A stretch of DNA of 47,814 bases from NCBI GenBank assembly GCA_010405405.1, contig MU004238.1, positions 2,119,530-2,167,343 on the forward strand, in the 5' to 3' direction. The position numbers and the translations under genes were made by a program. This DNA comes from Microthyrium microscopicum (lineage: Eukaryota). The notes beneath the pieces were generated by a model that ran no database searches, was not told the DNA's origin, and was given only the letters and a program-made list of their open reading frames with translations. Shown here in pieces: positions 19,795 to 47,814 of this stretch. Positions within the stretch are counted from its first letter, which is position 1, and each line of letters begins with the position of its first letter.

Positions 19795-22049
19795 ATGGCC
19801 GATGGTCCCTATCGGTTCCAGCAAGGGAACCAGCATTTCTATCAACCATTCAGTGCAAGAAATAGAAACCAACCTCGCGCTTCGTCCCCCCTCGGCGTCC
19901 GACTACCCTTCGAGACAGACTCCCCATCCCGCTCACCCGGACCACAGTCGCCGTCTAGGCAAGCTTTCGGCATGTACAATACCGGCTCACAACACATCCT
20001 CAATGGCGGACAGCGGGCGTTTGGGTTGCCCTTGAATTTGAATAAGTACCAACATCAAGGTCATCAAGGGCAGCATCAACATCAAGATCCCAATCAAGGG
20101 GGACACTCATATGCTCATCATCATCACACTCACTCGGGGGGTATGGCCAATGGTGCATCTCAATTTGGAGGTGGCAATCATCTGCAAAATGGTTCGCAGG
20201 GTCTAGGCTTTGGTAACATGTCAAAGCCCCCGAACGATCATTGGCAATTGCAGATGACAATGGCGCAGCAGGAGCGCGACTGGAGCTCAAGCAACGTTGG
20301 TCACGCATATGCGCGCTTGGCGCAAGGCTCGAGTAAGGATCTAGTCACAACCACGGCGAGCATGATGACTACGGATGGAGAAAAGGAGCAACGACAGCGC
20401 CCTGGTGATGACGATTCGACGTCAAAACCTAAAAATCAATCGTGGACAGAACTGGATCTTGGGGGTCAAACAATCCGATTCATTTCCCCTTCACTTTTCA
20501 ACTACCGCTTTCTCACCAAGCTCTACTTCAACAACAATAGACTCACATCAGTCCCCGGAGAAATTGGTCAACTCCGAACCCTCCGAAGCCTCGACTTGTC
20601 CATAAACGAACTGCGATCGCTCCCTTCACAGATTGGCATGCTTGTTAACCTTAAAGAATTACTGCTATTCGACAACAAGTTGCAAACGCTGCCATATGAG
20701 GTTGGAAATCTATATCAATGCGCTATATTGGGTCTGGAGGGCAATCCTTTGAACGATGAACTAAAGTCGATCATAATGGATTCGGGATCTCTTGAACTTA
20801 TCAAATATTTACGGGAGAGTGCACCCGGTAAGTCAAATCCAAGCCTCCTTTGAATAAAGTCTAATTTCTTGCAGACCCGGAACCACCCAATGATCGTGAT
20901 TGGCACGTTGTAGATGAGAGTCCCATTGTAGAAGCTGACAAGCTGACCCTCCTCACTTACAATACCTTGTGTCAACACTATTGCAATCCTGGACTTTACG
21001 GCTACACTCCACAACCTGCTTTGTCCTGGGATCACCGACGCGAAGTCATTATGGACGAGCTTCGAAACCGAAACGCCGACATCATGTGTCTTCAAGAGGT
21101 GGAACACGACGCTTTTGAGACGTATTTCCGCCCTACTCTAGCGCACATGGATTACAAAGGAGTGTTTTGGCCAAAAGGTCGCGCAAAAACCATGGGCCCT
21201 AATGAAGCTAAAATGGTGGACGGTTGCGCAACCTTCTACAAAAGCAGCAAATACATATTGCTCGACAAGCAGGTTATTGACCTTGCGGGTACAGCAATCA
21301 ATCGTCCCGATATGAAGGGCGAAGCGGACATTTACAATCGTGTCATGCCAAAAGACAATGTTGCAGTTGTAACTTTCTTCGAAAATCGAGTATCTGGAGC
21401 TCGTGTCATTGTGGCCAATGCACATCTTCATTGGGATGAAGAGTACAAGGATGTCAAGGTGGTTCAAGTCGCTGTGCTGCTGGAAGTCTTGACGAAACTT
21501 TCCACGACATACTCTTCGTGGCCACCACTCAAGGACAAGGAGAAGCAACCATTCCGCTTCAGTAATGGTGATCTACCAGATGGTGAAGAGCACGAGGTTA
21601 TTCAACCTGGTCCTTCTATGGCGTACACGGACCCCATCTCGATTCCGATGATACTCTGTGGTGATTTCAATTCGCTACCAGACTCTGGTCCAGTCGAGCT
21701 AATAAGGAATGGAAAACTGGCGCCAAATCATCCTGATCTTCAAAAACGAAAGTATGGAAAATTCACACGAGATGGCATGGACCATCCCTTCAACTTCAAA
21801 TCCGCATACAGCGAAATCAACGAGATGCCATTCACCAACTACGTTAGCAACTTTGAAGGCGTAGTGGACTACATATGGTATGCGCGCAACAGTCTCGGCA
21901 TACGCGGAATACTGGGCCAAGTGGATCCAGAGTATATCCGTCGAGTGCCTGGCTTCCCGAATATACACTTTCCATCTGATCATTTGGCGTTATTCGCAGA
22001 GTTTGGCATCAAAGCACGGCGCTTGGGGGTGAAGGACAAGGACAAATAG
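19795..22049 (+). CDS. CCR4: CCR4-NOT deadenylase subunit Ccr4; exons 19795-20827, 20875-22049 (735 aa)
   Basis: MADGPYRFQQ start, Q/H/G-rich region, leucine-rich repeats, a 47-nt GTAAGT...CTAAT...CAG intron, then the EEP nuclease domain (TYNTLC, DIMCLQEV, VDGCATFY, NAHLHWD, CGDFNS, FTNY, VDYIWY, FPSDH). Confidence 0.98.
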
Positions 22050-24086: not shown

Positions 24087-24769
24087 ACGTATCAAGTTCT
24101 GTGAGCCATCGAGTCGCGTGCGTCCCGTGAAGCGAGGTTGGTAATAAAAAATCTCTCGGTCTTTGTCTTCGCATTGAATCTTTTTCTTCTCAATATGGAT
24201 CTTTTCTCAGCTCTTTGATATGATGAAAGCACAAAGCTATTGTGGTAAAAGAAAACGCACTTGTACTTAGGAAATGAACATGCCTCACTGAATGTAGAAT
24301 GATAGAAAGATATATTCGGAGAGCAAATTCTACGGCTCCATACTTTTCATCTTTTCATGCACGTTACAGGCTCTCATCGATCTCATACATTTTTTAGAGA
24401 CTAGACTGTTATAGCAATGGCATTTACAAGATATGAGCTAGATGATGATGCTCGCACGTTCAGCAAATGCGCGAACACCCTACCTGCCTACCATAGCGTG
24501 GAGGGGAGGGTTTTGCAATTCATATTGCCATTATAACGATTCCTAAAATAGTACTTAGTACCTATTTTAGTCTAAGTACCTAGTATAATTATAAGATCTT
24601 AGCTAAGCTTCGCAACACTATTATATAATAAAAGAGATAGTTTAATTAATAATTTTTACTAGGAAAAAATCTTAAGATTCTCTTTTATAAACTATATTTT
24701 TATAGTTAAAATTAAGTAAAAGATAAATATAGTATTACTATATAAAAATAATTTAAGATATATTATTAC

Positions 24770-26689: not shown

Positions 26690-27489
26690 TTTAGTAAAGA
26701 CTATAAAGTTATATCCTAGTTAAGCTATAATAGCAAAGAATATTTAGAGAAATAAGCTAAAAGATTAGAAAATAAAACAAAATTAATACTATACTTAAGA
26801 TATAAGATATATTTTACTTAGAAGTAAAAACATTTACCTCTACTACCTTTATCTCTTTTACTTTTACCTTTATATTTATAATATATTCTTAGATAGTATT
26901 ACTTATTTTTATATTATTTATAATTACTAGAATTATAAAGAAATAGTTTATATTAATATAATTTTTCTTCTTTAATACTAGCTTCTTATTATCTATCTCT
27001 AGCTATATAATTAATTATTTATTAGTAACTTTTTCTACTTCTAATTCTTTAATCTTTATATTAGTAGTATTAAGTTACTTTTATATCTTTTAAATAAGCT
27101 TATATTAGAAGTTATATTATTCTATTATTAGTAAAGTACTTAGCTATAATAATAAGTAGTTTGCTACCTTTAATTAGGTAGAAAGTAACTATATTTTATT
27201 CTTTAAGTTATTATATATTTTAGAGCCTAAATAAGAAGTTATATTACTAGCTTAAATAGCTTAGGTAGACTCTTATGTAGTTATATTATTAATACTTTTA
27301 ACTTTCTTTTTTACTAGCTTATTATTAGATACTAGGGTAGCTTATTTTAAAAGTATTACTAATAATTTTATATTACTCTTATTCTATATCTCTATATTAC
27401 TATTAATCTTATTTTTTATAGGCTTATCTTTATAAATAGAAGTAGCTAATTTTAGTAGTACTAATAATAACTTTTCTTTAATCTTATCC
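26690..27489 (-). pseudogene. 3' part of RIPed gene C1 (acidic repeat, coiled coil, intron ~26837-26757)
   Basis: The frame from 43854-46143 continues exactly when element B and one TSD are removed. Coiled-coil-like KIKELEVEKV, then a phase-0 GTAAAT...CTAAT...TAG intron. Confidence 0.6.
27385..27489 (-). repeat. 105-bp (35-codon) tandem repeat unit, separated from its siblings at 43859-44130 by element B
   Basis: Same unit as at 43859, 43964 and 44069, and ends exactly at the TSD. Confidence 0.9.
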
Positions 27490-27849
27490 TATTAGAGATT
27501 AGGGTTATAGAGTAGGTAAGAAGGTTATAAAATACTTAATAGATTAAGTATATAGAAATAGGGATAAAAGTAATTGCTAAGGAACTATAAAGGGATTCCT
27601 TAGCCTTTATCTTATTACTTAGGAACCTCTAAGATTCTTCTCTAAGCTAGAGTAGTCTATTTATAAGCTAAAGTACTTTAAAGGTATACTTAGCTACTAA
27701 TTATAATAGTTAGGGACCTATTAGTTCTTTTAACTATAGAATATACTAAAGCTAAAGAAGTAGCTCTACTAGCTTCTAATAGCTATTAAGCTAAGGTACT
27801 TAAGCTATAATACCTATCTTAAAGAGTTCGTTAAGTTTAATTCCTAATA
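27490..27849 (-). repeat. 3' LTR of element B
   Basis: TATTAG...CTAATA (RIPed TG...CA termini), direct repeat of 43494-43853. Confidence 0.95.
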
Positions 27850-29735
27850 TTATCCTCTTAATAAGAACCCTAATGTCTTTATAAGTCTTTAAAAGGTTAA
27901 CTACGTTCTAATAGTACTAATATACTTTAAGATATATTATATTATAATAGTATAAACTACTTAGCTACTATCTAGCTAGCTAAATAATAATTTTAGTAAA
28001 TCTTAGTAAACTTATTATTAATTTTAAACGTTACTTAAAGAGGTACCTCTTAAATAATGATTTATAAAGCTAAACGTTACTATTAGGTACTTGTTTAGAT
28101 TTATCTAGGTTTATTAAAAACTTAGGTATTTTTAAGTTTCCTTAAGCTATTATTTTAAGCCTACCTAATCTATAGGTTATTACCTACTAAGAACGACTTC
28201 CCTCTTTAGAACCTTTACTTATAGTAAGAATTAATATTAAAGCTTTCTTTAATAGAAAGTACTTAATAAAGTAAATATTTACTTTTTACTAATCTAACTA
28301 GGTAGAAGAGTATTAAATAAGGTATATTTAATCTTATAATTATATACTTTTTTTAATTCTTCTTTATTCTATTTTTATAGAATTAAGGTATATACCTAAG
28401 TAAACCCTAGCTAACTAAGTAAAGCTAACCTTTATAAATAGAGCTATAATATAAAAATAAGTCTTAACTAGTAATCTTAACATTTTACTAGTAGCTTCTT
28501 TATAAATCTACTTAGTATACTTTATATCCTTTTATATCTATTCTCTCTAATAGCTACTATAAAGAATAAAGTAGAAACTAATAAGGCTCTAAATAGATCT
28601 AGTTTATCTCTATCTAACGCCTTTAAGGTTTTTAAAGATACTATTAATTTACTAAAGACTCTAATTACTAGCGTTATAAAACTAACTAATTTTACTAATA
28701 CTAATATTACTAAAAAGGTAACTAACTAAGTTAAATTTATTAATAGTACTAAAATTAATACTAATAATAACTATATTAAACTATTAAGTTTAGGCTACTC
28801 TTCTTTAAAGCCTTCTAAATCTAAAGAGATTAAAAAGAATACTACTTAGGTTAAGAAAAAAGAAAAGATTTTTAAGCGTAATTATAGTAATAAGTCTAAA
28901 CCTTCTTAGCTTAATATAAAGTAAATATATATTAATAATATTATATATACTAATAAAGCTTAGACTTAGTTTAAATTATACTAAACTTTTTTTATCTATA
29001 ACGTATTAATTAATTATAGTTAGTTAAGTAGTAAACGTTTTCTATATAACTTTAATAATAATAAAATAAAACTATCTAATATAGATAAGTTTATTCTATA
29101 TAAGAATAAAACTAAATTAATTATTAAATAGTTTCTTTTACTTAATCTATATTAGTAATATACTAAAGTATATACTAAAACTTTCCTATATATTAATCTA
29201 AAGGATTAGTACTATATAGCTTATAAGAACTACGTATTAGCCTTTAAGGTTTAAAATAATTATTACTATATAACCTATAAGACTATAAAGTCTTATTAAT
29301 AGTATTTTAAGGTAAGTTATTTTTAATTAATTTAATTTAAATTTAATTATTACTAATTATTTTCTAGGTTATTTCTTATAAGAAGAGTATTACTAAGAAC
29401 CTTATTATAAAGCGTTATAATATATTAAAAGTCTATATACTTTATTAATAAACTTATAATAACGATCTAAGTAAATATAATATAGATTAGCTTCTTTATA
29501 CTAAAAAAATAGTTTATATTACTAATAAAAACGTTATAAAGGCTATCTAGATATAAGTAAACCTTCTTATTATACTTAGGTTTAAACTAATATAAATAAG
29601 TATATCTATATTAATGCTATAAATAATACCTTCCCTCTATATTCTAGTATTGCTAAGAATAGATATAATAATATCTATATAATGCTAATATATTATAAAA
29701 ATAGTAAGGATATCCTTAAGGCTAAGAAAGCTACC

Positions 29736-29961
29736 TGTAACGAGCTATAGAACTTAAGCAAGTAGATAATTAGATTATATTCTAGAATCTACGAATGGGA
29801 AAGAGAGAGAAGAAGATCTAGAAGAGCTATAGATCTACGAGGGAAGTAAGTCCGCTTAGTAGATCCTTAGGCGCGCTAACCTCCTTAGGTCTAGCGCGTA
29901 ATCTTATAATAAGATCTTTCTTATAATACTACTATGAAGCCTATAAAGAGGAATTATTATA
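29736..29961 (-). repeat. 3' LTR of element A
   Basis: Begins TGTAAC, direct repeat of 37163-37388. Confidence 0.97.
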
Positions 29962-30039
29962 TAACTCTTCTTTTTAGTATAGCTCTCTAGGCTATAGACT
30001 ACTAATTATATCTACTTTCTTAATCTATTTTATTTTAAT

Positions 30040-30082
30040 CTAGTCTAGCCTAGTTTAGTCTAGTTTAGTCTAGTCTAGTCTA
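30040..30082 (+). repeat. (YTAGY)n pentanucleotide array in the 3' UTR of element A
   Basis: ctagtctagcctagtttagtctagtttagtctagtctagtcta. Confidence 0.85.
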
Positions 30083-33000
30083 ATAAACTTTTTAATAATA
30101 AATAATATTTTAATCCTTCTATAGTATAATACTAACCTTACTAGTTATTTAGAGTATCTTAACCTTTAGCCTACTAAGGTAACTATTAAGAAGCATTAAT
30201 AAACTCTAAGATGTCCTTAGAATACTCTAGTTCTTAAGTCCTAGTAGTCTAGTAGTTAGTAGTCTTATTAATATAAAGGAATTAGTAGTATAATTATTTA
30301 CTCTTTCTAATTAGTAGGAACGCTATTAGAGTTATAATTAATACTATTACTAGTAGGCTCTAGTATTAGTAGTATCTAGGTAGAATATAGGCCTAGCTTA
30401 CTAAAGTACTAAGCGTAAAACTTAGTAATAAGCTTTAGTATATTCTTAGTAGCTATCTAATTATACTATTTAGCTTTATTATAATTAGTATACTTAATCT
30501 TATATTATAGCTTCTTATATTAATTAGTAAAGTAGCTATTAATAATAGCGTTAATAGACTATTTATTATTATTTATAGTTTCTTTAATAACTACTAGTAG
30601 TAAATTAGTATACTTAAGTAGCTTAGTATCGTCTATAATATAGTAGAGGACTTAGGCGTAAAAGATATTATATATCTTTATAAAAGAGAAGAGATTAAGT
30701 TTATAGGTAATAGTATTAATCTTCTTAATTATATAAAAGGAACTTATATTCTTATTATCTAGAGTCTTTAAAGGACGTAAAGTAGAGTAGTTCTATGTAT
30801 CTAAGCGAACCTAGTTGCTTAGTAATAGGTCTAGAGCTACGTAGTAATAGCGATTAGTGTATTCTGCTTATTAAGCTTATGCCTAGATTAATTACTCTAT
30901 TAAATAATTATATATCTTAGTACGACCTTTCTATATTATGTCTATATTAATAGCTTCTTTATTAGTAGCTATAGAGGCGTTTATAAGTTTTAGGAAGTAA
31001 TATAAGAACTTAAGGCCTAATTAAGGGTTAAATTTATTTTAAGCTTTAAAGGATATAACTCCTATAGTAGTATTTATAGCAAAATTAACTATAAATTTAG
31101 TAAAGAGTAGAAGAGCTACCTAGTTATCTTAATCTTAATTAATAAACGCGCATAGGAATTACTTAAGTACTATAACTAAGATTTCTATTATGCTATTAGT
31201 CTTAGAGTAGAATGCTATACTAAGATAGAGTATTATGCCTATGTATTTATATAAGTACTTCTAGAATATAGAGGTAAATTAGCTACTATAGTTTAAAAGA
31301 ATTATTAATAGCTAGCTAACAAGTTTCTATATATAGTTAATAAAGGCTAGTACTATTAAGTCTATAAATAAGTCTAGTAGTAAGATAAAACGTTAGGTCT
31401 ATATATAGTAATTAATAACTACTATAATATACTAATAGATTATACCTTAGTATAAATAATAAGGTAATAAAATAGTAAAGTTAATAGAAATATTAGACTA
31501 TATACGCTTAGGAAGAGAAAATTAATATAAGAAGCTTTACTTCTTTTAGTAGATAGGTTTAGTAAATACACATTTATAGCCTTTAATAAAGCTTTTAACG
31601 TTTTATAATATCTTAGGCTACTAGTAATCTTTTTATAGGTAGTAGTAAGTTATTACTACTCTACTATAGCTTATAGCTTTATAGCTATATGCGCTCTATA
31701 TAGCGCAACGCTAAAGCTTATCTTAAGGAATAAAGATCTAGTTATAGTAGAAGATTATCTTATTAGTAGCTACTACGTAGTCTCTAAGCTTAATTTACTC
31801 TTATTTTAAAGTACTAAAGGGTAAGAAGAGCTAGTAATTAGTCTTAACGTAGTAAATAGTAATTATTATTTTATTATGCTTTACTACGTTTATAATATCC
31901 TATAGAAACTAGTTGCTATTAAAATCTAGGAATAGGTTATCTCTTAAGGGATTAAGTAGCTTACCCTTAAGCGTCTTATTATTACTAAGAGACTCTTTTA
32001 TAGAATTAAGTAGCTTACTTATAAGATTAGAAATATCTAACTTATTCTAAACAATAGTAACTAAGTATAGTATTAAGAAATAAGTAGGTTTAATAAGCAA
32101 TATAGCTAACTTTACTATATATTTTATATTAAATTAGTATAGAAATAGTAAAGATTAGACCTATTAAGAGACGTAAAGGTTATTATTACTTTATAAAATA
32201 TCTTATAACTAATAAGTAAGGGTATCTACCTTTCTATTAGCTATACCTAAATAGTACTTTATCTTAAAGTAAAACTAGGAGAGGAACTTAGCCTATCTAG
32301 CTTATTATTAAAAGAGACGTTTTATTATTATAAACGTTTAAAGGTTATAGTAATTAGAGAATACTTAAATAAGGTTAATAAAGCTAAATAGCTCTAGTTC
32401 TTACTCTTTAAATATATAGATAATAGCTAAAAGCTCTTTATTATAAATATTATAATTATATTCTACTAAAGTTATCTTCTTTAAGAGGTACGTAACTAGG
32501 TAAAGCTTCCTATTATTATCTTTTTAAGAAAGAATTATAGTATAAACCTAATCTAAAGTATCTATTTCTAGCTATATTTCTTTTATATAGTTAAAATAAC
32601 GTAATATCTTAATAAACGTAAAGTCTTACTTTAGCTTCTTAAACGTACGTTCCTTTAGTTTATTAAAGTCTTAAGAGAAGATTACTATAGCGTCCTTCTT
32701 TATAAGTACTATTAGTAGTACTATAATTTTTAAATATTTAAGAATAAATTAGTAATAAAAGTTAGTAAAGCTAAGGAAAGCTTAAACGTCTTTTACTAAA
32801 AAGGAATATTACTAGTTAACTATGCTTTAAATCTTTTCTAGGTCTATCTTAATACCTTTAGTAGTAATAATTAGGCTAAGGTATTTAACTTATTAAGTAT
32901 TAAATTTATACTTTTAGATATCTAAGTATAATCCTACTTTACTTATTACTTCTAGGACTAGATAGGTATAGATAGTATAGCTAGCTTTAGTATTACTAAA

Positions 33001-36000
33001 GACTAATAGATTATTTATATAATCTATAATAAAGTCATCTAAATAATTAATTAGGATATAGTTAAGATAAGCTTAGAAAGTCTTTAGGACTTTAGTAAAG
33101 CTAAAAGGCATAACTTTAAATTTATATAACTTATAATAAGTTAGGAATATAGTTTTGTATTTATTACTAGGTTTAATATAGATATATATAAAGGTAGTAA
33201 TAATATTAAATTTAGAGAAATATTTTACGTAATAAATATAGGTAAGTATTTCTAATAGCTATAGAGGAATATTATAATTCTTTTATATAATCTTATTAAG
33301 TTTATAATAATTAATATAAACTTAAATTCTTTTTCTTAGCTTATATATATATAGTATTAGTATAGCGTAATATAACTTACTAGCTTAAACTTAATCTTAA
33401 CTAAGTATTTAATTAACATATTATTTAATAATAAGGAATTCCTAATAACCTAAGCTACTATAGTAGTGTTTAGGAATTATAGCATTAGAGATAATATTAA
33501 TAAAGTAATCTTATTTACTATAGTATAGTATAAGTTTATTGCCTAATTTTAGGTTAAAGACGTCTATATAATAATAATATTTCTTTAGTAAGTATTTAAG
33601 AATCTCTTTTTATAAAAGAGAAGGCTTATTATACTTTTCTTACTACTTTTTAAAATCCTTAGGTAAGATTTTGCCTAAGTTAATAGTAACGTCTTTCTTT
33701 AGTATAGGATTTAGATTTAGAGGTTTCTTTTCCTTTCTATTTTTAAAGTTATTAGGCTAGATTTTGCTAAATTACTAGCCTTATTCTAATAACTTAATAA
33801 AGGTAGTAACGCTAATTATAGTAACGTTTTTAAAGTAAAAGTCTATTAGATTAACTAAGTAGCCTTTATAATCTACTAAGATTAGGTAGCCTACTAATAA
33901 GTAATATATAAGGTAGTAGTCTAAGTTAAAGTAGATTTACTTCTTACTTTCTTTAAAAGTAATCTTATAGAGGTTAATTTAAGGGTTACTAAGGATAAGG
34001 TTATAGCTAGTAACGTTTATAATAAAGTAGTAGATTTATTTAATATACTCTTCTAAATAGACGTTAACTATAGTAACTTTATTAACTTTTATAATAGTTT
34101 TATTATTAGCTAATTATATAATTTAGGGGGTAGAAAGATTAATAGTAGGGATTCTATATTATTTAATAAAGTTAGGGTAAATAATTCCTATTACTTTACT
34201 ACTAGTATCTATAAGAATATTAATTTTTAAGTAGTAGCTTTATCTTAGAGAGAATATAGTACTAGAAGTAGTCTATTAGTTACTTATTATAAATATAGTA
34301 GCTACTTCTTAGAGACGAAAATTATATACTATAGAAGTAAGGGATATCTTAATAATAGCTAGTTTAATATTATTAAATATAATAGGCTCTAAGGATAACG
34401 CTTATTAGAGATTACCTTCTAGGCGTTAGATAGTCTTATTAACCTTATATTAGATTTATTCTTTAAAGAAAACTAGCTTAGGGTTAGGTTCCTCCTTCTT
34501 CTATTACTAATTATATACTTCTTACTTATTTAGCTCCTTTACGCATTTCTATAGAAAAGCTTTTAGTTTTCTATATTATTACTATAATTATACTTATTAT
34601 AATTATCCTCTATAGTTAGGAACTAAGGAGATTAAGTAGTAATTTAATTATAGATAATAGCAAACTCTATAATAATAGTAGCAACCTTTAGTTATATTTT
34701 AGTATCTAAAAGAGCGTCTCTATCTTTATATAGTGCTAAGTTATACTAATAGCTATAACTCTTCTTTTTATACTTTATATAATAGTTATTAGCCTTTAAG
34801 GCGTTATAGATATTTAAAGAGTAGTTAAACTTTAGTTTCTATTTACTACTCTTAGCTACTAAATAATTATTATTATTATAGCTTTGTAGATTAATAAAGG
34901 GGACGTATTTAATATAATAAGCTATAGTATATAAGCTCTTAAGGAAGTCTATAAATGTTTTTAATTCTATAAAGAGCACTCTCTCTATAAACTTTAAAAG
35001 TAGAAGGAGACGCATTTTAATAATCTTATCTTAATTACTAAGCTTAGCTTCTTATAAGTTCTTTAAGAAGTAAGCTAGAAATTATTTAAGCTTCTTAATA
35101 GACTTTATTATAGCTTCTTAACTTTTAAGCTAGGTCTTAGTAGTAATATAGCTATCTTTAATACTATACTTATAATCTAAATTAGACTATATCTCTACTA
35201 TAGATAAATATAAGTTAGTTAACTTATAATTACTCTACTTGTTAATAGTACTAAATGCTTAATCTTTTATTACTCCTTAAATAACTTAGATTTTAGAGGC
35301 TTTTATAAGATAAACTTATATGTTATTATTAAGGTAATCTAATACTTTATCTTTTTAAGCATAGTACTTCTACTTATTCTTTCCTAAAAAGAGTAAAGGC
35401 TTATTATCCTATATCTTAAGGAAAGAGGCGCTACTAATTAAGTTAAGATTAAAAAAGAAAATAGTTTAACGTAAGTCTAGTATTCCTAAAGATATATTTA
35501 AGTTAGGTTAGTCTATATCTTAAGCTAAGGAGATTTAACAAAATAGATTATTATTTACTAACTCATTACAATTAAGATAAAGATTAGTTACCTTAGTAGT
35601 TAAGGGTTTCTTTTAAAGGGCGTTAACCTAAGCTTAAAGAATAGTAGCTTTATTTATCTTTTTTTATAGAGCCTTATAGTATTTACTAATCTTATTAACG
35701 TAAGTAGTAAGTACTTCCTTAAGTAGATTATTATCGTATTATAGTTCCTATACTTTTTAATAAGTAGTTGCTACTTTCTTAAGAGTAATAGCGTTATTTT
35801 AGATTTACGCTTTAAAGTAAGTAATCTACTTTACGCGTTTATTATTAGTTTTAGCTAAGTCCTATATTTCTCCTTAAGCTTCTAGAACTTCTTCTTAAAG
35901 AGTATAGATTAAGTCTATATTATAAGTATTTATATTCTACTTAATTTTAAAGAGATAGGCTATAGTTTAGAAGGCTAATAAAGAAGCGTAAAGCTATATA

Positions 36001-37162
36001 ACTAAGTTGTCTAGTATTAATTCCCCTTTTAATAAATATTCTAAATCTATATCTAATTTAATTAGGTAGTAAGAGTAATAATAGAGATCTAATTACTTTT
36101 CTTTATAATAAAAGTATACTCCTACGTTCTTTAGCTTATCGCCTTCTTTACTAGGCATCTTTTATACTTAAGTAGCTTAGAAGATTAAAGGGTTCTTATT
36201 AATAGTTAAAGTAACTAGTTAATTAAGGTTTACTACTATAAGGTAATAAGATATTAATATAAGTAGTACTCTAGGGCCTTTAGCTTATTAACATAGTTCT
36301 ATTAGCTATTTATATATTTTAAAAGAAAGTCTAGTATTATCGTTAGGTTAAAAAGGAGCTAGTAGTTAGTTATTTCCTATATTTATTTAGTTTAGTAAAG
36401 TTATTTAACTAGTATTTTAAGGAGCATCTTCTAACGCTTTAGTCTCTTTACCTTTATAGCCTCATTCTAATAGATAATTATCTTCTAACTTATCTTTATC
36501 TTCTAATAACGCTTTTAAGTTTAGTTCTAGCGATTTTAATAGTCCTAAGACGTTCTCTACTAAATCTACTACTTTCTAGGTAGTATTTAGTTATATTATA
36601 TTCTAGGTATTAGGTTTACTTTAATACTTAGTATATATAGTAAAAGGGTAACGTAATAGAAATAAGTAACGCAAACGTATAGGAGATAGAGATTAACGCT
36701 AATTATAAGGCTAAGTATAAATAATTAAAGATAGCAAGTAGGCTATATAGCTATTAACTTAGGTCTATTAAGTAGAAGCCTTATTAGCTATAATTATAAA
36801 TAATAAAGAAGAGTACTAGGAGAGAATACTTATTTATTTAACGCGTTTTAATAATAAGTATATTAAGTATAATTATAGATATTTAATAGTAGTATAGAAG
36901 ATAAACTTTAGTATTCTATAGAACTAAGGATAAGGAGCAATTAACGCTTAGACTATTAATAAGTTAAAGAGTATTAAGAAATCCTAACGCTCTAATTAGA
37001 TAGGGGGTTAGCAGAGCTAATAAATTTAGTAAATCTATAAAGAATCTTTAATAGAGTTTAAGACTATATGCATAGAATATTAATCTATATAGGTACTTCT
37101 TTAGAAGTAAATTCTAGGGTATGTAGTATAAGCATATAAATATTTAAATAGTTTATAGATTA

Positions 37163-37388
37163 TATAACGAGCTATAGAACTTAAGTAAGTAGATAATTAG
37201 ATTATATTCTAGAATCTATAAACAAGAAAGAGAGAGAAGAAGATCTAAAAGAGCTATAGATTTACAAGGGAAGTAAGTTTGCTTGGCAGATCCTTAGACA
37301 CGCTAACTCCCTTAGGTTTAGCGCGTAATCTTATAATAAGATCTCTCTTATAACACCGCTATAAAGCCTATAAAGAGGAATTATCATA
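37163..37388 (-). repeat. 5' LTR of element A
   Basis: Same length as the left LTR. About 25 differences by manual count, all transitions, no indels. Confidence 0.97.
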
Positions 37389-40300
37389 CTACCTATTACT
37401 CTAAAGTAGCTTTACTTAAAGCTACTATTAGTACTACTTATATTAAGCGCTATAATAACCTTTATACCTATTATTATAAATTTAAACTACTTATAAATAA
37501 TAACTAAGAAAGTATAAGTACTCTAATTATATTACTTAAATTCTAATTAACTTTATTTTAGGTTATAGATACTTTATTACGTTAAATTAGTAAGCTTACT
37601 AACGTTATAAAGATATTTACTTCTTAGTAGGCTAATAGTACTAAAAAGAAGAAAAAGGCTTTTAATACGAGTTAGTTTATAATTCTCTAAAGCTAGATTA
37701 ATAAGTATAAGCTTAGTTTAAGTAAGCAAATAGTTCTTTGTTGCTATCTAGTTATAATAGGTTAGATTAATTCTAATAATAACGATTTAGAAACTAAAGA
37801 GTCTAAAGAATAGATATAATATCTAGTAAATATATCTAATATTAAGTTAATATATCTAGTATTTAATAGATAAGGTTAATTATATTTTAGGTTTATTATA
37901 AGCTATTTATTAGTACTTAGTAGCTATTAGGTTCTATTTAAACTAATTTATATAAATAGTATAAGATAGTTTCTCTTAATAAAATACTTTCTTAAATTTC
38001 TAAGTCTTCTCTTATAAACCTAGATAGTACTTAGGAGTATATTCTTATAAACTTAGAATTATTATTTTAAGGTATTTAAAGGATACCTTTTTAAGGGTTA
38101 ATAAGTAAAGCTAAAGTAATATTAATAGTTTTAGATTTAGGTTTAAAATTAGTTCTATATCTAGTTTTAAATTTTTTCTAAGTCTTTTCTATTTAGACTA
38201 TATTTATATATATATCTATAGGAACCTATTTATTCTAAAGTATTATAATAATACTATTTAAATACTATTTAGTTTTATTTAAATAAGCTTATCTTAATTA
38301 TAAGTAAAATAAATTATTATTATATATCTATATATACTATAAAGTAACTATGCTTTTATACTTATCCTCTCTATAAAAAGAAGCTCGTTCTAAGTCTTAT
38401 TATAACTATTTTAGTCTACTTAGCCCTTTCTTAGCTAGTATAAGTTTAGTAAATACTAAAAGCTTCTTTAGACGTTTTCTTAGCTTCTTAAGCTCTAAAT
38501 AGGGTTTATCTAAGTTAAGTTATTCTAATTTATATTTAATTACTTCTATTAGAGCTAATTTAGCTAAAAAGATACTCTTTTTCTTTAACTTCTCTTAATA
38601 GCGCTTTAATATAACTAAGAAAAGGTTACTAATAGGTTCTTAGCTTACTTTAAATATAGAATAGTTTTTTTACTTTACTTTATAGTAATAGATACTATCT
38701 TTATTAACCTTATATCTAATTATATCTTTAACTTTATAGTAATTAGTCTCTTTAAAGTCTAAGATTTCCTAAAATAAGATTATTTACTATAAGAAATATA
38801 TATTAAGTATATATTATTATAATAAGGAGATATAAAAGATATTATAAACTAGAGCGCCTTTAAGTAAGTTAATATAGTATATATTATAGTTAATAACCTC
38901 TATTACTTTAAAGAGGCTTATATACTTAATATTTAGTTTCTTTTTAGACTTAGCTATTCTAATATTCTTTATATTAAATAAAACTTAGTTATTTACCTTT
39001 AAAGTAACATCCTTATAGCCTTTATTATAGTATTTAGCTTATAGAGTTTAAACATTTTCTAAATAAGCTTAAAAAGCTCTTTAAAGAGATAGAATATATT
39101 CTACTAGTTCTTTTACGTTAAGAGTAATACTTATTAGGTACTCTTTAAGTACTTCTAGTACGTATAAGTATTTACTTATATATATTATAAATAGAGTAAT
39201 ACTAATTAAGTTATATATACTATTATTATATATAAATTTAGTAAAATTAAGCTTTTTAGCCTAATTATTCTACTCTTAGCTATAATAGATATATAAATAG
39301 TATTTAATCTCTTAGTTTTAATGCTCTATTTACTTATCTATCTAAGGTTAAAACGTAGTAAATAACTTCTATTAGATTCCTAAATAATAGAGGAATATAT
39401 TCTAGAACTTAAAGATAAATATAAAGCCTCTATTAAATATAATTATATTTAATACGCTATAAAGTTATACTACTTTATATAAAAAGAGCTTAGCAAGATT
39501 ATTTACATCTATATCTTTATAATAAAGTATATAATAAGCTATTTTAGTTAGCTTATAGATAACTACTATAATAAAGTTATATAGCTATCCTTAGAAGACG
39601 CTTAAAAATAAGTTAATAATAAAATTAACTATAATATCTTTCTAAAGGGCTATTAGTACTAGTAAAGATAGAAAGAGTCTATTTTAGCCTTATTTAATAG
39701 ACGTATTTTATTTATACTCTAAATAGGCTATATAGTACTCTTAGATATCCTTATTAATATTATCCTAAGTATAATAGCGTTAAATCTTCTCTAATATCTT
39801 ATATTAGCTTCTATAGCCTCTTTCTAAGAGATTATTATAAAAATATTAGAAAACTTAGACTTTACTATTCTTTATAGTAACCTCTATCTATAAATAAGTT
39901 TATTTATTTTCTATTAGCTTAGTAAAAGAGCTATTAAGTACATCTAATATAGTAATAATATCTACTTTTTAAGAATTATTTCTTAGATACTATAATAAGG
40001 TACTAATAGATATAACTAAAGCGTTAATAAACCTAATTAAGTCTTTATTAGACTTAGGCGCCTTAGATAGTTATAATTTATCTTAGATAAGGTTTAATAA
40101 GGTATTTATAGTTCTTTTCTACTTTATATTATCTAAAGAGACATAGTCTAGTCTTTATAAAGGTCTATTTATAAAGTTTATCTTTCTTAAATAATATTTA
40201 ATATTAAACTTAAACTTAGTAAGAAAATCTACTTATCTTATATATATAGTAAAGATATTTTAGGATATATTAAGTAAATAAAGGTTTATATAATCTATTA

Positions 40301-43300
40301 GGATTAAAAACTTTAGAATACTATATAGGTACTTATAAAAAACTCTTATAGAGTTAATAATAGCTAGAAACTTCTACTATAGAGTCCTATAGTAACTCTT
40401 AAGTCTTAATAGCTTTCTTAAGTAAAACGCTATAAGTTACTATTAGTCTTCTTAACCTAGCTTAATTTATTTCTAGCTTAAAATACTATAAATTACTTAT
40501 CTAAAAGCGTCTATTTTTAGATAAGTCTTTAATATAAGATTATAGTAAGTAAAAATTAATACGTATATAAAGGTAGCCTTTAAGTTATTAAAAAATTAAA
40601 TAGCTTTAAGAGAAAGATTAATAGAAACTAATTCCTTATTATATAGCTATTAGCTTTTTAAGGCCTACCCTAAAAGCTTCTTAATTAAAGAGTTTAATAA
40701 AGAAGTAATATAAGAGAAGTTAGTAATAAAATATTAATAATAGTTTATAAAGCTAATAAACTTTCTTACTTAGTATATATTACGTAGTGTTAACTAATCT
40801 ATAACTATTATAATTTATTCTAATTTTATTATAATACTATCTAAAGTTATAATATATTTAAAGTACTTAGTTTAGTCTATATAAAAGCTATACTTTAATA
40901 ACTTAATATATAACTTAAACTTAATAAGTCTTTTAAGTACCTCCTTTATATATTTAATATAATCTTCTTTATTCTTAAAGAAAATAAAAATATTATTAAA
41001 GTAGATAATATAAGTTATATTAATAAGGCTATATAGGGCTTAATTAATATATACTTAAAAAGTAGTAGAAACGTTAGTAAACTTAAAGAGTATTACTTAA
41101 TACTTAAAGGACCTATATTTAGTTTAAAATACTATCTTTTACTCATTACTAATATAAATATAAATATAATAATATATTTTATAAAGATCTAGGCTTATAA
41201 AGAACTTAGCTCTTAATAATTAATTTAATAACTCTTTAATTAGTAATAAAGCATAATAGTCCTTAACTATAATATTATTTAAGCCTTTATAGTCTATATA
41301 TAAATATAAGGTACTATCCTTCTTCTTTATAAAGATAATTAAGGCTCTAATAAAAAACTAAGATTTATAAATAAATCCTCTCTTAAAATCTTTCTTAAAG
41401 TATTTATATAGAATAACTAGTTTTGCTTCTAATAAGTCGTAAATAAGCTAATAAAGTATACTTATACCTAACTTAAGATTAATAACTAAGTCCTATAAAC
41501 TATATTCTACTAAATTCTATACTTTATCCTTACTAAAGGCTTTTATAAGCTTCTTATAGTAATATAGTAAGTCTTATAGACTAACATAGTTTAATAAACT
41601 TACTAAATACTTAAAGAGCTAAGTAGATCTATCTTAACCTAATTAGAGTAACTCTTTTAGGAAGATAAATCTAATCTTATTATAGTAGTTATCCTTTAAA
41701 TAAATAAAGAATAAAGTCTTAGCCTTAAAGTCTAGTAAAAGGTTCTAGTCCTTAAGCTAAGGTATCTTTATAATAATTATATAGTATAATAAATCTATAA
41801 TATAAAATAATACTTCATTAGTCTTTAAGATCCTATTAAAGTTAACTACTATTACTTTAGTAGTTACTATCCTATAAATAGTTATAAGTATATTATTTAG
41901 ATACTTAGTTAACTCCTCTAGAAAATAATATATCTCTAATTAAAGCTTCTTAGCTAAGGCGTAGTCTATAATATTAAAATAGGCTCTACTATTTATTATT
42001 ATACTTTATAGTACATAATCTTAGCCTACTTAATTCTAAGTAGTTCTTTATAAGATAATTTAGCGTAATTTCTTTAATTAGTATACCTTCTTATCTAGAA
42101 TCCTCTTATTCTTTATTACTTCTAAGACTTAAGTAATAACGACTTTATAAAAGTTACTAAGAAAGTTAAAAACTAGATTATTTATAATAAAAACTATAAA
42201 ATCTTAGTTAGCTACCTTATAGCTTAGTCTTTTCTCTTAATTCTCTTTAGCTTTAAGTTAAGGTAATTATAAGCTATATAACCTACTTTACTATAATTCT
42301 AATACTTACTTTTACTAGAGTTACTAAGAAATAGCTATTTAACTCTAGGTATTATATTACTCTTTAGTTTATCTAGCTTTAAAGCCCTATTAGAAGGGCT
42401 TAGTCTAGACTTCTTTAACTTATTCCTTTAAGAACCTTATTAAGTCTTATCCTTTAAATCTATAAATATTAAACGCTATTTAGAGAATTTACTATTCTTA
42501 ATATCTTTTTTAAGAGTAGTTAGTATCTTCTAGTTACTAATAAATCTTAAATACTTTAAAATATATTAAGATAAGGCTTCTTTAGCTATCTTAACTATAT
42601 AGTTTAGGTTAAAGATTATATTATTTCTAAGATAAGTAAATAGTCTATTACTAAAGAATAATAAATAAATTAATACGTTATTAATCTTATACTTATAAAA
42701 GAGAAGTACAAATTTATTAAAGTATTCTTAGAAGGTTTTTTTCTTTATTATAGTAGTTAAGAAGCTCTAAAAGACCTTATAACGCTTCTTAATAGGCAGA
42801 CTAAGAAGTTTAAGAGCCTATTATTCTATAAGGGCCTATATAGGTTCGTATTAGTCTAGTTTAGCTAACTAGATCTAGAAATTAATATAATTATTCTAAA
42901 TAGGTTACATAACCTTCTTATTAAGATAATTATAAGCTTAGAGAACTACTAGATATAAGTCCTCTTTATATTTCTTTATAGTAAGTATATTAGTTATATT
43001 AAAGACCTAATCCTTATACTCTTATAAACTTTTAGCTTTATATATCTATAGTTTATTACTACTATAAGCTAATTTAGAGCTATTATATTTAATATAGGCC
43101 AAAATAGCTAGGCTAGCGTTATATTAACTCTATTTATTAATCTACTTAACTAAATAAAGTTCTCTATATTTATAAGCTACTTTTATTACTTTAAATTATT
43201 TAATTTTAAGTATATTACGTATTTACTATATTTTAGCTTATAGCTATTCTAACGTCTCTTTTATATTTACTACTAGTTCTAAATAAGCTTATTCTATATT

Positions 43301-43493
43301 ATTAGGATTACCTATAGAGCTACTTAGTCTTACTAGAGTTAGTATAACTATATCTAGTATAACTAGATTTAATCTAGCTAGTTTTATTTTAAAAGCCTTA
43401 CCCTTAGGTTTTATTAGTTTATTACTTATAACTAATCGTAGTATTTTAAAGAAAAAGCTTTATAAATACTTTATTAGTAAGAAGTAATTATAA

Positions 43494-43853
43494 TATTAGA
43501 GATTAGGATTATAAAGTAGATAAGAAGGTTATAAAATACTTAATAGATTAAATATATAGAAATAGAAATAAGAGTAATTACTAAGGAACTATAAAGAGAT
43601 TCCTTAGCCTCTATCTTATTACCTAAAAACCTCTAAGGTTCCTCTCTAAGCTAAAGTAGTTTATCTATAAGCTAAGGTACCTTAAAAGTACGCTTAGCTA
43701 CTAATTATAATAGTTAAGGACCTATTAATTCTCTTAACTATAGAATATACTAAAGCTAAAGAAGCAGCTCTACTAACTTCTAATAGCTATTAGGCTAAAG
43801 CACTTAGGCTACAATGCCTATCTTAGAGAGTCCGTTAGGTTTACTATCTAATA
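43494..43853 (-). repeat. 5' LTR of element B
   Basis: 360-bp direct repeat of 27490-27849, followed by TSD TATCC. Confidence 0.95.
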
Positions 43854-43858
43854 TATCC

Positions 43859-44130
43859 TATATCTTTATATTACTATTAATCTTATTTTCTATAGGCTTA
43901 TCTTTATAGATAGAAGTAGTTAGTTTTAGTAGTACTACTAGTAACTTTTCTTTAATCTTATTTTATATCTTTATATTACTATTAATCTTATTTTTTATAG
44001 ACTTATCTTTATAGATAGAAGTAGCTAATTTTAGTAGTACTACTAGTAATTTTTCTTTAATTTTATTCTATATCTTTATATTACTCTTAACCTTCTTTTT
44101 TTAAGGCTTATCTTTATAGATAGGAGTAGC
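43859..44130 (-). repeat. 105-bp coding tandem repeat, ~2.6 copies (plus one at 27385-27489)
   Basis: Unit starts TATATCT at 43859, 43964 and 44069. Confidence 0.92.
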
Positions 44131-45759
44131 TTATTTCGCTAACTTTTATAAAGATTTTATAATAGCTTTAATAGATATATTAAAGATACTATTATTTAGA
44201 TTCTTTATTATAATAACTTTAGAGCTTTAGCTAGTAGTTTTTTTAGTAACTTTAATATTTTTAGTCTTAGCCTTAATAGCTATATCTTCTTTAATTATAT
44301 CTTTAATTATAAAGAGAATATATACTATAATTATTTTAGTATCTTATCTCTTAAAGTATTTAAAGCAGCCTTTAGATAAATTAGCTACTAAGTTAGTTAA
44401 TTCTTTAGAATTAATTTATATACGTAGTCTTAGCTTTATTAGGCTAAATTAATATTTACTTATAGCTATATTTACTTTACCTTTCTTAGGCTTCTTTTTT
44501 ATTTTTATATTAAGAAGAAACTTTTAAGAGAGTTTAGATTAAATTTCTTTATATAAGTAATCTATAGTATTCTCTACTATACTAGTATTGTTAATAATTT
44601 ATTAAAGTTTAGTTTAATCTAAATCTTTAATTTATAAAATAGACTTAAAAGTTATAAAGACTTTATATTTATATATAATATCTAAGCTTTTATTAAAGTT
44701 ATAAAGTTCTTCTTTATTTTTAAGATCTTATTACTTAGTCTTAGTAATAATAACCTAAAGCTTCTTTATTAAGATCTTTTTCTATTTAGTAGTAGACTTT
44801 TTATTATACTTTTATTATATATAAAACTTACTAGTAATATCTAAAAATACTACTAGCTTAATAGCTATAAATATAGAAGGGACTTAAATATATAGGTCTT
44901 TTTTATCTAGTTTATTATAAAAAAATACTAATATATTTATATAACGTTAAGAATAAATAAGATTACGTAGCTTTAATAGTTTATTTTAAGCTATAGTAAT
45001 ATATTATTCTCTAATATATACTTACTCTTTATATATATATATATCTTCTACTAAATAAAGTTATTATTTAATATTAAAAAAAGCGTAATTAATTTTAAAG
45101 ACTTAGCTACCTTCTCTATCTTTAAGTACTATTATAATAAGAGCAACTTAAGTATATATCTTATTAAAGTATATATTTAGTAATAACGTTACTAATTCTA
45201 TATCTTAAGCCTATATAAAGATTTTCTAGCCTAGGGCGTTATATACTTTTACTAACTCTTTATTTTCTTATAGTAGTAAAGTACTATCTAGAGTATATAA
45301 TTATAAAAAGAAGAGATAATATAATATATCTTTATAGCCTTTACGCTTAAATATATATTATAATTATAGGATTATAAAGTACTTATTTATAATCTTAAAA
45401 CTAGCTTTATAGTGAAACTAAGAGTTATTTCTTAAGAAGCTATACTTAATAAAATCTAGGTTTATAATTTATTATATCTAATATAGACTTATAGATTTAC
45501 TATTTACTAGGTAAATTTTAAGATATTTCTTAATATAGTTAATATACTATAAATAATTAACCTAATTAAATTTTAGTAGCTAAATTAATAAAAGATTTTT
45601 CTTATTATTAAATTACTTAAAGGTCTTTTTTTTAGTCTTATTTTATAGCTATTTAAGACGCTTATTATTCTTAGTTATAGTTTACTTAATATATTTTTAG
45701 AGATTTTAGTTTGCTTTAACTCCTTCTTTCTATATAACTTATTTTTTCTTTATAGCTAG

Positions 45760-45828
45760 CTTTTTAGGTTTAGACTTAAGCTTTTTAGGTTTAGACTTAG
45801 ACTTTTTAGGTTTAGACTTTAGCTTTTT
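45760..45828 (-). repeat. 21-bp coding tandem repeat x3 (xKSKPKK as read)
   Basis: CTTTTTAGGTTTAGACTT at 45760, 45781 and 45802. Confidence 0.9.
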
Positions 45829-46732
45829 ATTACTTCTAGCTATCTTGTTATTAATTATAATATTAGAAAACGTATTCTTATCTTTATTTATTATAAGCTC
45901 TTTAATAATATAACTAGACTTATAAGGTTTAAATTTCTTAGCTTATACTAATATAGGTTTATTTTTCTTAGCTTTTTTATTATTCTCCTTATTTTACTTA
46001 AATTCTAATATTTCTTAAAGAGTTTCTCTTATATTAGGATTATTTTTAAGTTACTATTACTACTTTTTAGTAAAGAGTTTTTATATTAGCTTTAGATTCT
46101 TAGGAAGGGCTAGTTTATTTTTAGCGTTTTTAGTTCTTACTATAGTAAGAATAGGAAGTCTATTAAAGTTAGCCTTTTAGCTCTAATAAATATAAAAAAA
46201 TAAGGCTTTAAAACTTATATATTAGGTAGAGAAATAGGTTAATAAGAAATAGATTATAATAGTAATATAGAGTTATATAAATTAAGTATAATTAGTAGTT
46301 TTAGCTATCTTTATAGTTATTCTTAAAGACTTCTAATAATTATATAGAGATAGTTAAAAAGAAATAATAGTATAGGTCTAAAAAGCTTTATACTATATAG
46401 CTAGCTAACTTTACTTATTTAATAATTATAATCTAAGCTTACTTAACTAAAGTAATACTTTAAGCTAAGTAAGTAACTAGTATAAAAGAGTATAATAAGA
46501 TTAAGTAAGCTTATAAATAATAACCTACTATATTAGGAAATTAGCTCCTATCTACTTTTAACTCCTAAAATAGTAGTAAGTACCTATATAGATTATATTA
46601 CGTTATTATAGCTAATAATAAAATTAAGTTATTAAATTTATATAGTAAAAGAGTTTAGTATAAAGAATAGATAGTACTATAAGTTTAATAGGATTATTTT
46701 TAGTTTCTATAATTATAAGCTTATAGATAGTA

Positions 46733-46762
46733 NNNNNNNNNNNNNNNNNNNNNNNNNNNNNN
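46733..46762. other. Assembly gap (30 N)
   Basis: Run of N. Confidence 1.
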
Positions 46763-46763
46763 A

Positions 46764-47814
46764 ACGTAAAATAATTAAATTAAGTAGACTTATAGCTAAC
46801 GTTAAGTTTTAAAATAAGAAGAAGTTAAGAGTATTAATATATTATAGTATTAACTAAAGTTTATAGAGTATAGCTATAACGTAGTTTTATTAAATATATT
46901 AATATTAAGGCTAATAAAGAAGCTTAGTATTAAAGTAATATAAGGTATATATATATTATAATATTAATTTCTTAGTTTTAATCGTAAGAGTACTATAATA
47001 TAACTAGACGTAAAGTATATATAACTAATAACTTACTCTATAAGATATATAGTATTAACTATATCTAAATCTTAAAGTTAATTATTACTAAGTATTATAA
47101 TAGTATAATATATTAGCGTACGTTTTAATTTAGCTAAGTTATTTTTAATATTATTAAAATAATAATATAAAGAGACATTAAGATTAATATAGAGATTTCG
47201 TCTAAAGAGAGACTTAAGCTTTTATTTTTTTTATTTAATAAATTTTACTAATAACTAAATAAGTAGCTAGATAATATATTTATTAATATAGACTATTAAG
47301 GAGTTACTAAGTTTTAAGACTTACCTATTTAGTATCCTATATTTCTAGGAAATTCTTTACTACTTAGGTCTAGCATTATATAAAGTCTTAGTATTAATAT
47401 TATAAAGACTATATAAAGATTTATAGTATTAAATTAAGAGCTTAATAATCTCTTTTAGTACCTATTATAGCTTCCTTAATTTTGCCTTATAATATTTATT
47501 AAAAAAACTCTAAGTCTATAAATAAAGCATCCTTAATAACTATAAATTTATAAGTATAGGCTATAATATAGTAGTTACTAAAGAAGGAATTTAGTATATA
47601 CTTAAAGTATATACTATACTATATAACTTATTTTATAATTTTAAATAATAGCTTTTATTATAGAAGTTATAAGTAACTATACCTAAGAGCTATACTTAAC
47701 GAAATACTATATAAGTAACGAAGTAAGATCTTCTATTATAGAAATAAGTTTATACTACTAGGTTTAGTAATTAAGACAAGATAGACTTTCTTATAATTTA
47801 TCTATATAGTAAGT
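46764..47814 (+). pseudogene. RIPed coding relic C3, unidentified, open at both ends
   Basis: One plus frame reads protein-like for ~350 codons with TAA/TAG stops only (e.g. RDIKINIEISSKERLKLL, IGYNIVVTKEGI). No motif recognised. Confidence 0.4.

Follow-up and report, generated by a model that had tools for sequence, protein, structure and literature searches.

Of all parts of long terminal repeat (LTR) retrotransposons, accessory genes are understood least, and antisense ones have been documented mainly in plants. Passages of four articles describe a fungal case, the Boty-like elements of Botrytis cinerea and Sclerotinia sclerotiorum, which carry gag, reverse transcriptase (RT), integrase and CHROMO together with an antisense gene, brtn (PMC4227169, PMC7264820, PMC8365987, PMC5987419), and one of these passages classes Boty/brtn with the antisense open reading frames (ORFs) that lie between pol and the 3' LTR (PMC7264820). 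In the literature searched, Boty/brtn was the sole case of an antisense accessory gene in a fungal LTR element. The present analysis concerns a window of 47,814 nucleotides from Microthyrium microscopicum (contig MU004238.1 of assembly GCA_010405405.1), numbered here from its first letter. The window contains, on the minus strand, a Ty3/gypsy element that is probably a chromovirus, called element B, which has been mutated by repeat-induced point mutation (RIP) and measures 8.7 kb without a second Ty3/gypsy element, called A, that is nested in it. With a probability of roughly 0.6, we read a long segment between pol and the 3' LTR of B as the decayed remains of an accessory gene with introns that ran antisense to gag-pol in a multicopy chromovirus family.

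Passages on plant elements describe antisense ORFs between pol and the 3' LTR as frequent, naming gene23 of maize Grande, RIRE2 of rice and the Retand elements of Silene and other plants with TRP28, and report that one of the products is nuclear (PMC7264820, PMC11963269). Gene capture is given in one passage as a proposed origin of these ORFs (PMC7264820), and the word "intron" is absent from the main text of both articles. Retand, unlike B, is placed in a non-chromovirus lineage, and its pol-to-LTR regions measure 2.9-6.6 kb (PMC11963269). The same source also mentions antisense genes of deltaretroviruses, namely HBZ of human T-lymphotropic virus 1 (HTLV-1) and APH-2 of HTLV-2 (PMC11963269).

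Element B resembled Boty in being an LTR element of a fungus (Pezizomycotina) with a probable chromodomain and with a putative extra gene for which an orientation antisense to gag-pol is favoured. It differed in its host, which was not near the Sclerotiniaceae as judged from a CCR4-like gene; exon 1 had no match among 1.84 billion protein representatives, and RIP may mask a kinship. Intron content may be a feature that sets the gene of B apart from brtn, which is reportedly the subject of Zhao et al. 2011 (Virology 417:248). With the plant elements B shared the position of the segment, its favoured orientation, the long pol-to-LTR region and the lack of a clear database homologue. The plant ORFs occur across family copies and are suspected of a nuclear or regulatory role, and family-wide presence is probable for B. 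HBZ and APH-2 are antisense genes expressed from the 3' end that act as nuclear regulators, and the same logic holds for them, by which antisense orientation permits introns; a spliced isoform of HBZ exists. They differ from the gene of B in belonging to exogenous animal retroviruses and in being unrelated in sequence, so that the analogy is functional only. Canonical gag-pol-only chromoviruses, represented here by element A and among fungi also by MAGGY-type elements, have the same order of RT, RNase H, integrase-SH3 and chromodomain as B, together with short LTRs and a 5-bp duplication. Unlike A, element B carried a coding-like antisense block in a tail of ~3.1 kb. The preliminary description of this locus had taken fungal chromoviruses to encode gag-pol only, a generalization that the Boty-like elements with CHROMO and antisense brtn already contradict. 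The gene of B probably fits the known kind of antisense pol-to-LTR ORF: it does so by position, and probably by orientation and family-wide presence.

Purine periodicity in the tail of element B

RIP produces transitions only, and the purine/pyrimidine sequence of a RIPed region is therefore ancestral; coding DNA has a purine-N-pyrimidine period of three. Three-base purine/pyrimidine periodicity, which RIP transitions leave unchanged, was used as the test signal. The plus-strand frame from 28550, drawn in the preliminary description, was not open, since it held 15 stops in 254 codons, but its periodicity was coding-like. Its purine fractions by codon position were 0.63, 0.53, and 0.40 (28550-29311, p=1.6e-6), so that its three-base purine signal was the strongest of any frame within the 23-kb RIPed block, exceeding that of B's own gag-pol and of the pol of A. 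The block that followed was also periodic (29368-29547, chi-square p=0.0011), as was the next one, formed by 29548-29735 and 37394-37800 on the two sides of A (p=6e-7), of which the part 37394-37800 was periodic on its own (chi-square p=0.0016). The flanking spacers were non-periodic (27857-28549, p=0.51; 37801-38570, p=0.39). Chi-square values of 26.7 and 28.6 in the segment compared with a maximum of 13.0 among 103 flank windows of 600 nt. In total, ~1.6 kb was marked by periodicity as once coding, starting from 28550, passing through two phase changes and ending near 37800. The tandem repeats in the segment were trivial only and were rejected as the source of the periodicity.

A four-state periodicity hidden Markov model (HMM) was run on the sequence with A excised and on the whole RIPed block (24500-47814). 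With A excised, the coding-like state extended from 28550 to 37800 in three phases, and its onset fell exactly at 28550. Over the whole block the model called solely exon 1 and the gag-pol of A; it made no call in the pol of B and none across ~7.6 kb of non-genic RIPed flank, which showed that it is conservative. Inside A the model found one phase change at ~34385 (30310-34385 versus 34386-35966). A single change is expected for the gag/pol frame boundary, so the method maps frame changes in a known gene too.

The phase of the periodicity was kept over the insertion site of A when A and one copy of its duplication were excised. A stop-free run of 87 codons crossed the same junction (29586 to 37504) and was the longest in the region, in agreement with the earlier observation of a frame that stays open across the insertion. 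The second-longest open run, of 82 codons (28481-28726), included the first 59 codons of exon 1 (28550-28726). A gene model composed of 28550-29311, 29368-29552, and 29600-29735 joined to 37394-37675 contained 454 codons, with a stop rate of 5.5% versus 7.8% in the two pol frames. The present copy has no intact ORF, with 25 internal stops in the model and A splitting exon 3.

The coding-like block was located inside B, between the chromodomain (38592) and the polypurine tract (27850). The distance between these two, with A excised, was ~3.08 kb, or ~2.4 kb when counted from the end of pol near 38000 that the preliminary description had given, close to the ~2.5 kb of extra sequence first estimated. 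Inverted terminal repeats or a duplication of its own, which would mean a separate DNA transposon, were looked for, and none bounded the segment.

Phase shifts, candidate introns and strand

Profile likelihood placed the two phase breaks at 29354 (support 29270-29371) and 29548 (support 29527-29603), and the model with two shifts was better than that with no shift by 51 nats and better than that with one shift by ~10 nats. The intron proposed earlier at 29312-29367, with GTAAGT, TACTAAT and TAG in phase 0, was present within the first break interval and fitted the length class needed there, because its 56 nt equal 2 mod 3, as required for the change from phase 2 to phase 1. The second interval contained a tentative intron of 47 nt (29553-29599), also 2 mod 3, as that shift needs. 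The former had fungal-type intron features as it stands, and the latter only with RIP changes allowed. Canonical intron patterns were found six times on the plus strand and never on the minus strand in 23.3 kb, and the motif by itself is weak; estimated from the pattern densities, the chance of coincidence was ~0.005 for intron 1 and ~0.015 for intron 2. Minus-strand intron patterns were found in neither break interval. Since the shifts matched intron signals and indels were otherwise not evident, introns explained the shifts better than two frameshifts did, and introns at these places would put the gene on the plus strand. Further signals named in the preliminary description were found as well. 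A third intron candidate of 48 nt at 37514-37561, which is phase-neutral, had ATAAGT at 37514 and TTTTAG ending at 37561; a run of five lysines was encoded at 37643-37657; and intron-like motifs were visible at ~28320-28440.

The distribution of stops pointed, weakly, to the same strand. Exon 1 had 15 plus-strand stops compared with 23 in the partner frame of the minus strand, and its first 100 codons contained two and 11, respectively. Among 197 control windows from pol, a stop gap of this size pointed the wrong way in 1% and the right way in 12.7%. The log-likelihood ratio from stop counts was 2.45 nats for the plus strand in exon 1 and ~0 elsewhere, and the open runs of 87 and 82 codons, longer than any others, both lay in the plus frames of the model. 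The plus strand was thus favoured at about 10 to 1 from stops, to which the intron coincidences are added.

Family copies, homologue searches and alternative readings

Four DNA runs from a single sample contained this stretch, and no RNA run was listed as containing it. Contigs of three of the DNA runs (X1-X3) were placed on the region 27200-44300 with a threshold of 80% likeness. Matching pieces numbered in the thousands, and their differences from the window were almost all transitions, which indicated that both A and B are multicopy. In X1 the depth was 2.6-7.8 thousand over the segment and 3.3-7.8 thousand over the gag-pol of B, and X2 and X3 showed the same pattern. One contig joined 29733 to 37394, with TT replacing CC, and represented an empty A site, that is, a B copy without A that had been RIPed differently. 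The segment looks like a part of the multicopy B family. In a further run (X5), presumed to be RNA, there was one contig, which was placed on the LTR of A only.

Metagenomic loci with chromoviral pol were used for comparison. Of 80 such loci, 45 were checked for LTR pairs and 15 had them, and the ORFs were listed for nine pol-to-LTR gaps, eight of which were longer than 1.1 kb. None of the nine gaps held a convincing antisense gene, the longest antisense ORFs being 140-221 aa and either low-complexity or overlapping. Sense ORFs after pol were seen in three loci of ~47-48% GC content with LTR pairs, namely L048 (5581-6942, 454 aa), L059 (6492-7976, 495 aa) and L055 (7754-9025, 424 aa), and they are C-terminal pol extensions or third ORFs. 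The tblastn identity to B was 20-27% for all loci, and none was demonstrably related. A RIP-tolerant pattern from 29075-29126, with 16 plain bases, gave no match in a metagenome scan, and PF04195 (TRP28) was not detected in the Pfam search of the segment translations. A word search with the pol of B itself gave seven matches with identities of 21-36%, a number insufficient for placing B or for linking it to Boty; that pol found only these distant matches indicated that RIP strongly blunts such searches.

Several observations weigh against reading the segment as an antisense gene with introns. Every stop was RIP-explainable in any frame, so that stops cannot prove coding, and the emission values of the HMM were set after the composition of exon 1 had been seen, the chi-square tests being independent of them. 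RIP-degraded intron patterns numbered 18 on the plus strand over 23.3 kb, which makes intron 2 weak alone. The strand signal was weak past the first 100 codons (3 plus versus 2 minus stops in exon 2, 12 versus 13 in block 3), and a strand test on purine/pyrimidine codon classes was uninformative, being correct in 13 of 20 control chunks and giving ~+1 nat here. The minus strand contained an open run of 67 codons (28525-28725), in a frame that did not fit the periodicity. All three DNA runs came from one sample, maybe the assembly's own source; contig depth is not copy number, and no contig was shown that ties the segment to pol in another copy. Pfam, with X at stops, found no family in nine translations of the segment (27784-29738 in all six frames, 37389-38602 in the three of the plus strand); phmmer with exon 1 gave no match at E<=0.001 among 1.84 billion protein representatives, a search whose sensitivity RIP lowers; and a word search with 37394-37801 against longer proteins was also empty.

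Purine periodicity is blind to strand, and the segment might instead be read on the minus strand as a third sense ORF after pol, env-like or ORF3, that has suffered two frameshifting indels. We consider this quite unlikely. The level stop counts in exon 2 and block 3, a stop of the minus partner frame right at 28547-28549, and the sense ORFs after pol in three of the nine metagenomic gaps would agree with it, but it leaves the excess of minus-strand stops in the first 100 codons to be explained and needs two indels within 1.6 kb, while ~2.7 kb of B pol shows none. Both shifts, moreover, match plus-strand intron signals and neither matches a minus-strand one, and no match was obtained when the 80 metagenomic loci were all searched with the segment by tblastx, a weak test because of the stops. 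Another reading concerns origin and function and overlaps with that of an antisense accessory gene: the segment could be foreign cargo, a piece of a host gene or of another transposon that inserted into an ancestor of B or was transduced by it and then spread as a passenger, maybe as a pseudogene from the outset. Introns would be kept in a genomic gene captured in the antisense direction, capture has been proposed for the plant antisense ORFs in a passage of PMC7264820, and no similarity to retroelement proteins appeared in the searches made. This origin nevertheless seems rather improbable, since the segment lacks bounding terminal repeats or a duplication, its depth equals that of B pol, by which it spread with the family, and its periodicity is stronger than that of B pol, which argues against long decay before RIP.

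That the segment was never a gene, and that its periodicity and open runs arose by chance from the composition of RIPed, AT-rich, low-complexity DNA, is very unlikely. The GC content is ~22%, the translated N-terminal part is of low complexity and rich in N/K/T, and several frames are stop-poor at 28525-28725, as such an accident would have it, but none of the 103 flank windows approached the chi-square values of the segment, the HMM was silent in the non-genic RIPed flank, and the phase remained coherent over 1.6 kb and the A junction in sequence with only trivial tandem repeats.

According to the preferred reading, that of a decayed antisense gene, the B family would consist of 8.7-kb chromoviral Ty3/gypsy elements that carry gag-pol and, in addition, an accessory gene some 450-500 codons long. 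This gene would occupy the interval from the chromodomain, at the end of pol, to the polypurine tract and would run antisense to the genomic RNA. It would have contained one spliceosomal intron at the least (29312-29367), and a second one (29553-29599) is probable. Introns of an antisense gene always face the wrong way for splicing in the RNA template, so that they survive reverse transcription. The gene may have had its own promoter, within the 3' LTR or the ~690-nt spacer that adjoins it, and by analogy with other antisense retroelement genes its product would most likely be a nuclear regulator of the element. The present copy would be dead, the internal stops having been given by RIP and exon 3 split by A. 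The preliminary description had proposed an antisense, intron-bearing gene for a protein of ~450 aa. This core is supported by the periodicity, the intron-matched shifts, the phase kept over A, the depth parity with pol and the contig with the empty A site. No such support came for a third intron, for a promoter close to the LTR, for a role in anti-silencing or chromatin, or for the CxxC motif, coiled coil and nuclear localization signal, features that RIP obscures.

Structure of the elements, genomic setting and meaning

The LTRs of B (27490-27849 and 43494-43853) were 99.4% identical with transitions ignored, their TATTAG...CTAATA termini are a RIP-altered TG...CA, and the element was flanked by a 5-bp target-site duplication, TATCC (Table 1). 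The canonical LTRs, the duplication and the polypurine run place the extra segment inside the retrotransposed unit. In the minus frame from 43490, with X at stops, Pfam found RVT_1 (E=1.4e-6, 28.6 bits, slightly under the cut-off of 29.6), RT_RNaseH (E=7.7e-6), RT_RNaseH_2 and SH3_Tf2-1 (E=3e-7), in the order RVT_1, RT_RNaseH, RT_RNaseH_2, SH3_Tf2-1. These four families, pol domains only, were found in one of the three minus frames of 37387-43490, and the integrase core itself was not detected in this reading of the pol frame. The PF00385 chromodomain was matched with E=0.0013 and 19.1 bits (cut-off 25.1), over nearly the full profile and at the expected place, and BLASTP against a chromodomain-bearing relative was not significant across this part. 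RT, RNase H, SH3 and chromodomain were in one frame, which ran from 41330 down to 38592 (~2.7 kb) without an indel.

Element B landed in a 105-bp tandem array, perhaps a satellite or a portion of the LTR of another element, of which two units remained on the left (27282-27489) and about four on the right (43859-44285). The array unit at 27380-27492 was 99% identical, in purine/pyrimidine space, to that at 43854-43966 across B. Because B lies inside the array, its LTRs look circularly permuted or "swapped" at first sight. An assignment of the LTRs to 27282-27783 and 43488-44176 was rejected, as the blocks were in swapped order and the 105-bp units belong to the flanking array.

Element A had LTRs of 226 bp and a duplication, CTACC, at 29731-29735 and 37389-37393. 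Only ~400 nt lay between its chromodomain region, read by eye, and its 3' LTR; a tail of ~0.4 kb in A against ~3.1 kb in B showed that the long tail is specific to B. In the three DNA runs the contig depth of A was ~3-5 times that of B, and the contigs suggest that A has inserted into B copies repeatedly. Contigs joining the LTR of A to that of B (29881 to 43684) were also seen.

Table 1. Features in and around element B, with positions in the window
Feature	Position	Strand	Remarks
Left flank of B, 105-bp tandem-repeat array	27282-27489		last 5 bases, 27485-27489, are the TATCC duplication
3' LTR of B, 360 bp	27490-27849	-	TATTAG...CTAATA termini, 6-bp inverted ends
Polypurine-tract-like run AAGAGGATAA (minus strand)	27850-27859	-	adjoins 3' LTR; putative
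Spacer, ~690 nt, no periodicity	27860-28549	+	presumed place of promoter/5' leader; intron-like motifs at 28320-28440
Putative exon 1, 254 codons	28550-29311	+	15 RIP-type stops
Putative intron 1, 56 nt	29312-29367	+	GTAAGT...TACTAAT...TAG, phase 0
Putative exon 2	29368-29552	+	periodicity
Tentative intron 2, 47 nt	29553-29599	+	RIP-degraded ATAAGT...ACTAAT...TAA
Putative exon 3, part before A	29600-29735	+	29731-29735, CTACC, is the duplication of A
Element A, Ty3/gypsy	29736-37388	-	LTRs 29736-29961 and 37163-37388; interrupts the putative gene, no part of it
Putative exon 3, part after A	37394-37800	+	periodicity ends at ~37800; stop at 37673-37675 from the preliminary description
Spacer, ~790 nt	37801-38591		no periodicity; adjoins B chromodomain
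Chromodomain of B pol	38592-38738	-	PF00385, profile positions 1-52 of 53
B pol domains, single frame	38811-41330	-	RT 40869-41330, RNase H 40257-40595, SH3_Tf2-1 38811-38987
5' LTR of B	43494-43853	-	TATCC at 43854-43858, then 105-bp array to ~44285

The window changes sharply at 24300-24500 from gene-bearing DNA with 41-53% GC to the RIPed block with 17-31% GC, which reaches the window end. The low-GC block bore the marks of RIP, with TAA and TAG stops crowding every frame, and its repeat copies diverged almost exclusively by transitions; the identity of the LTR pairs rose from 88-89% as written to 98.4-99.4% with purines pooled and pyrimidines pooled. The gene-bearing part contained a CCR4-type gene with leucine-rich repeats and an exonuclease domain (19795-22049), and the GC boundary sits ~2 kb downstream of it. 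The best named relatives of its protein, at ~56% identity, were from Dothideomycetes, lichen-forming fungi and Eurotiales, and the top matches overall, at 72-92%, were metagenome proteins. These relatives point to a filamentous ascomycete without a close named relative in the collection searched. Judged from its sequence, the host is a RIP-competent filamentous ascomycete that, by the CCR4-type gene, is not near the Sclerotiniaceae. The right flank (44286-47814) contained no Pfam family in six frames, and a run of 30 N, a gap or masked sequence, was located there at 46733-46762.

The biological weight of the locus is moderate, because the copy is dead, a role for the product is suggested by analogy only and the searches made gave no homologue. 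The purine/pyrimidine periodicity recovered the frame, phase shifts and limits of a gene that was invisible to translation-based searches, and the same approach could annotate other RIP-destroyed regions. A second fungal family with an antisense accessory gene, apparently intron-bearing, would widen the picture, and introns whose survival depends on orientation would serve as a marker. It may be supposed, tentatively and with more doubt than confidence, that a fungal chromovirus lineage outside the Sclerotiniaceae came by a spliced antisense gene without relatives among known proteins, and did so independently of Boty/brtn. If so, antisense accessory genes would be a recurrent, convergent invention, made in plants, in deltaretroviruses and in at least two fungal lineages. 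The introns would then mark the origin of the gene as a captured or normal nuclear gene, and its product may affect silencing by the host or the transcription of the element.

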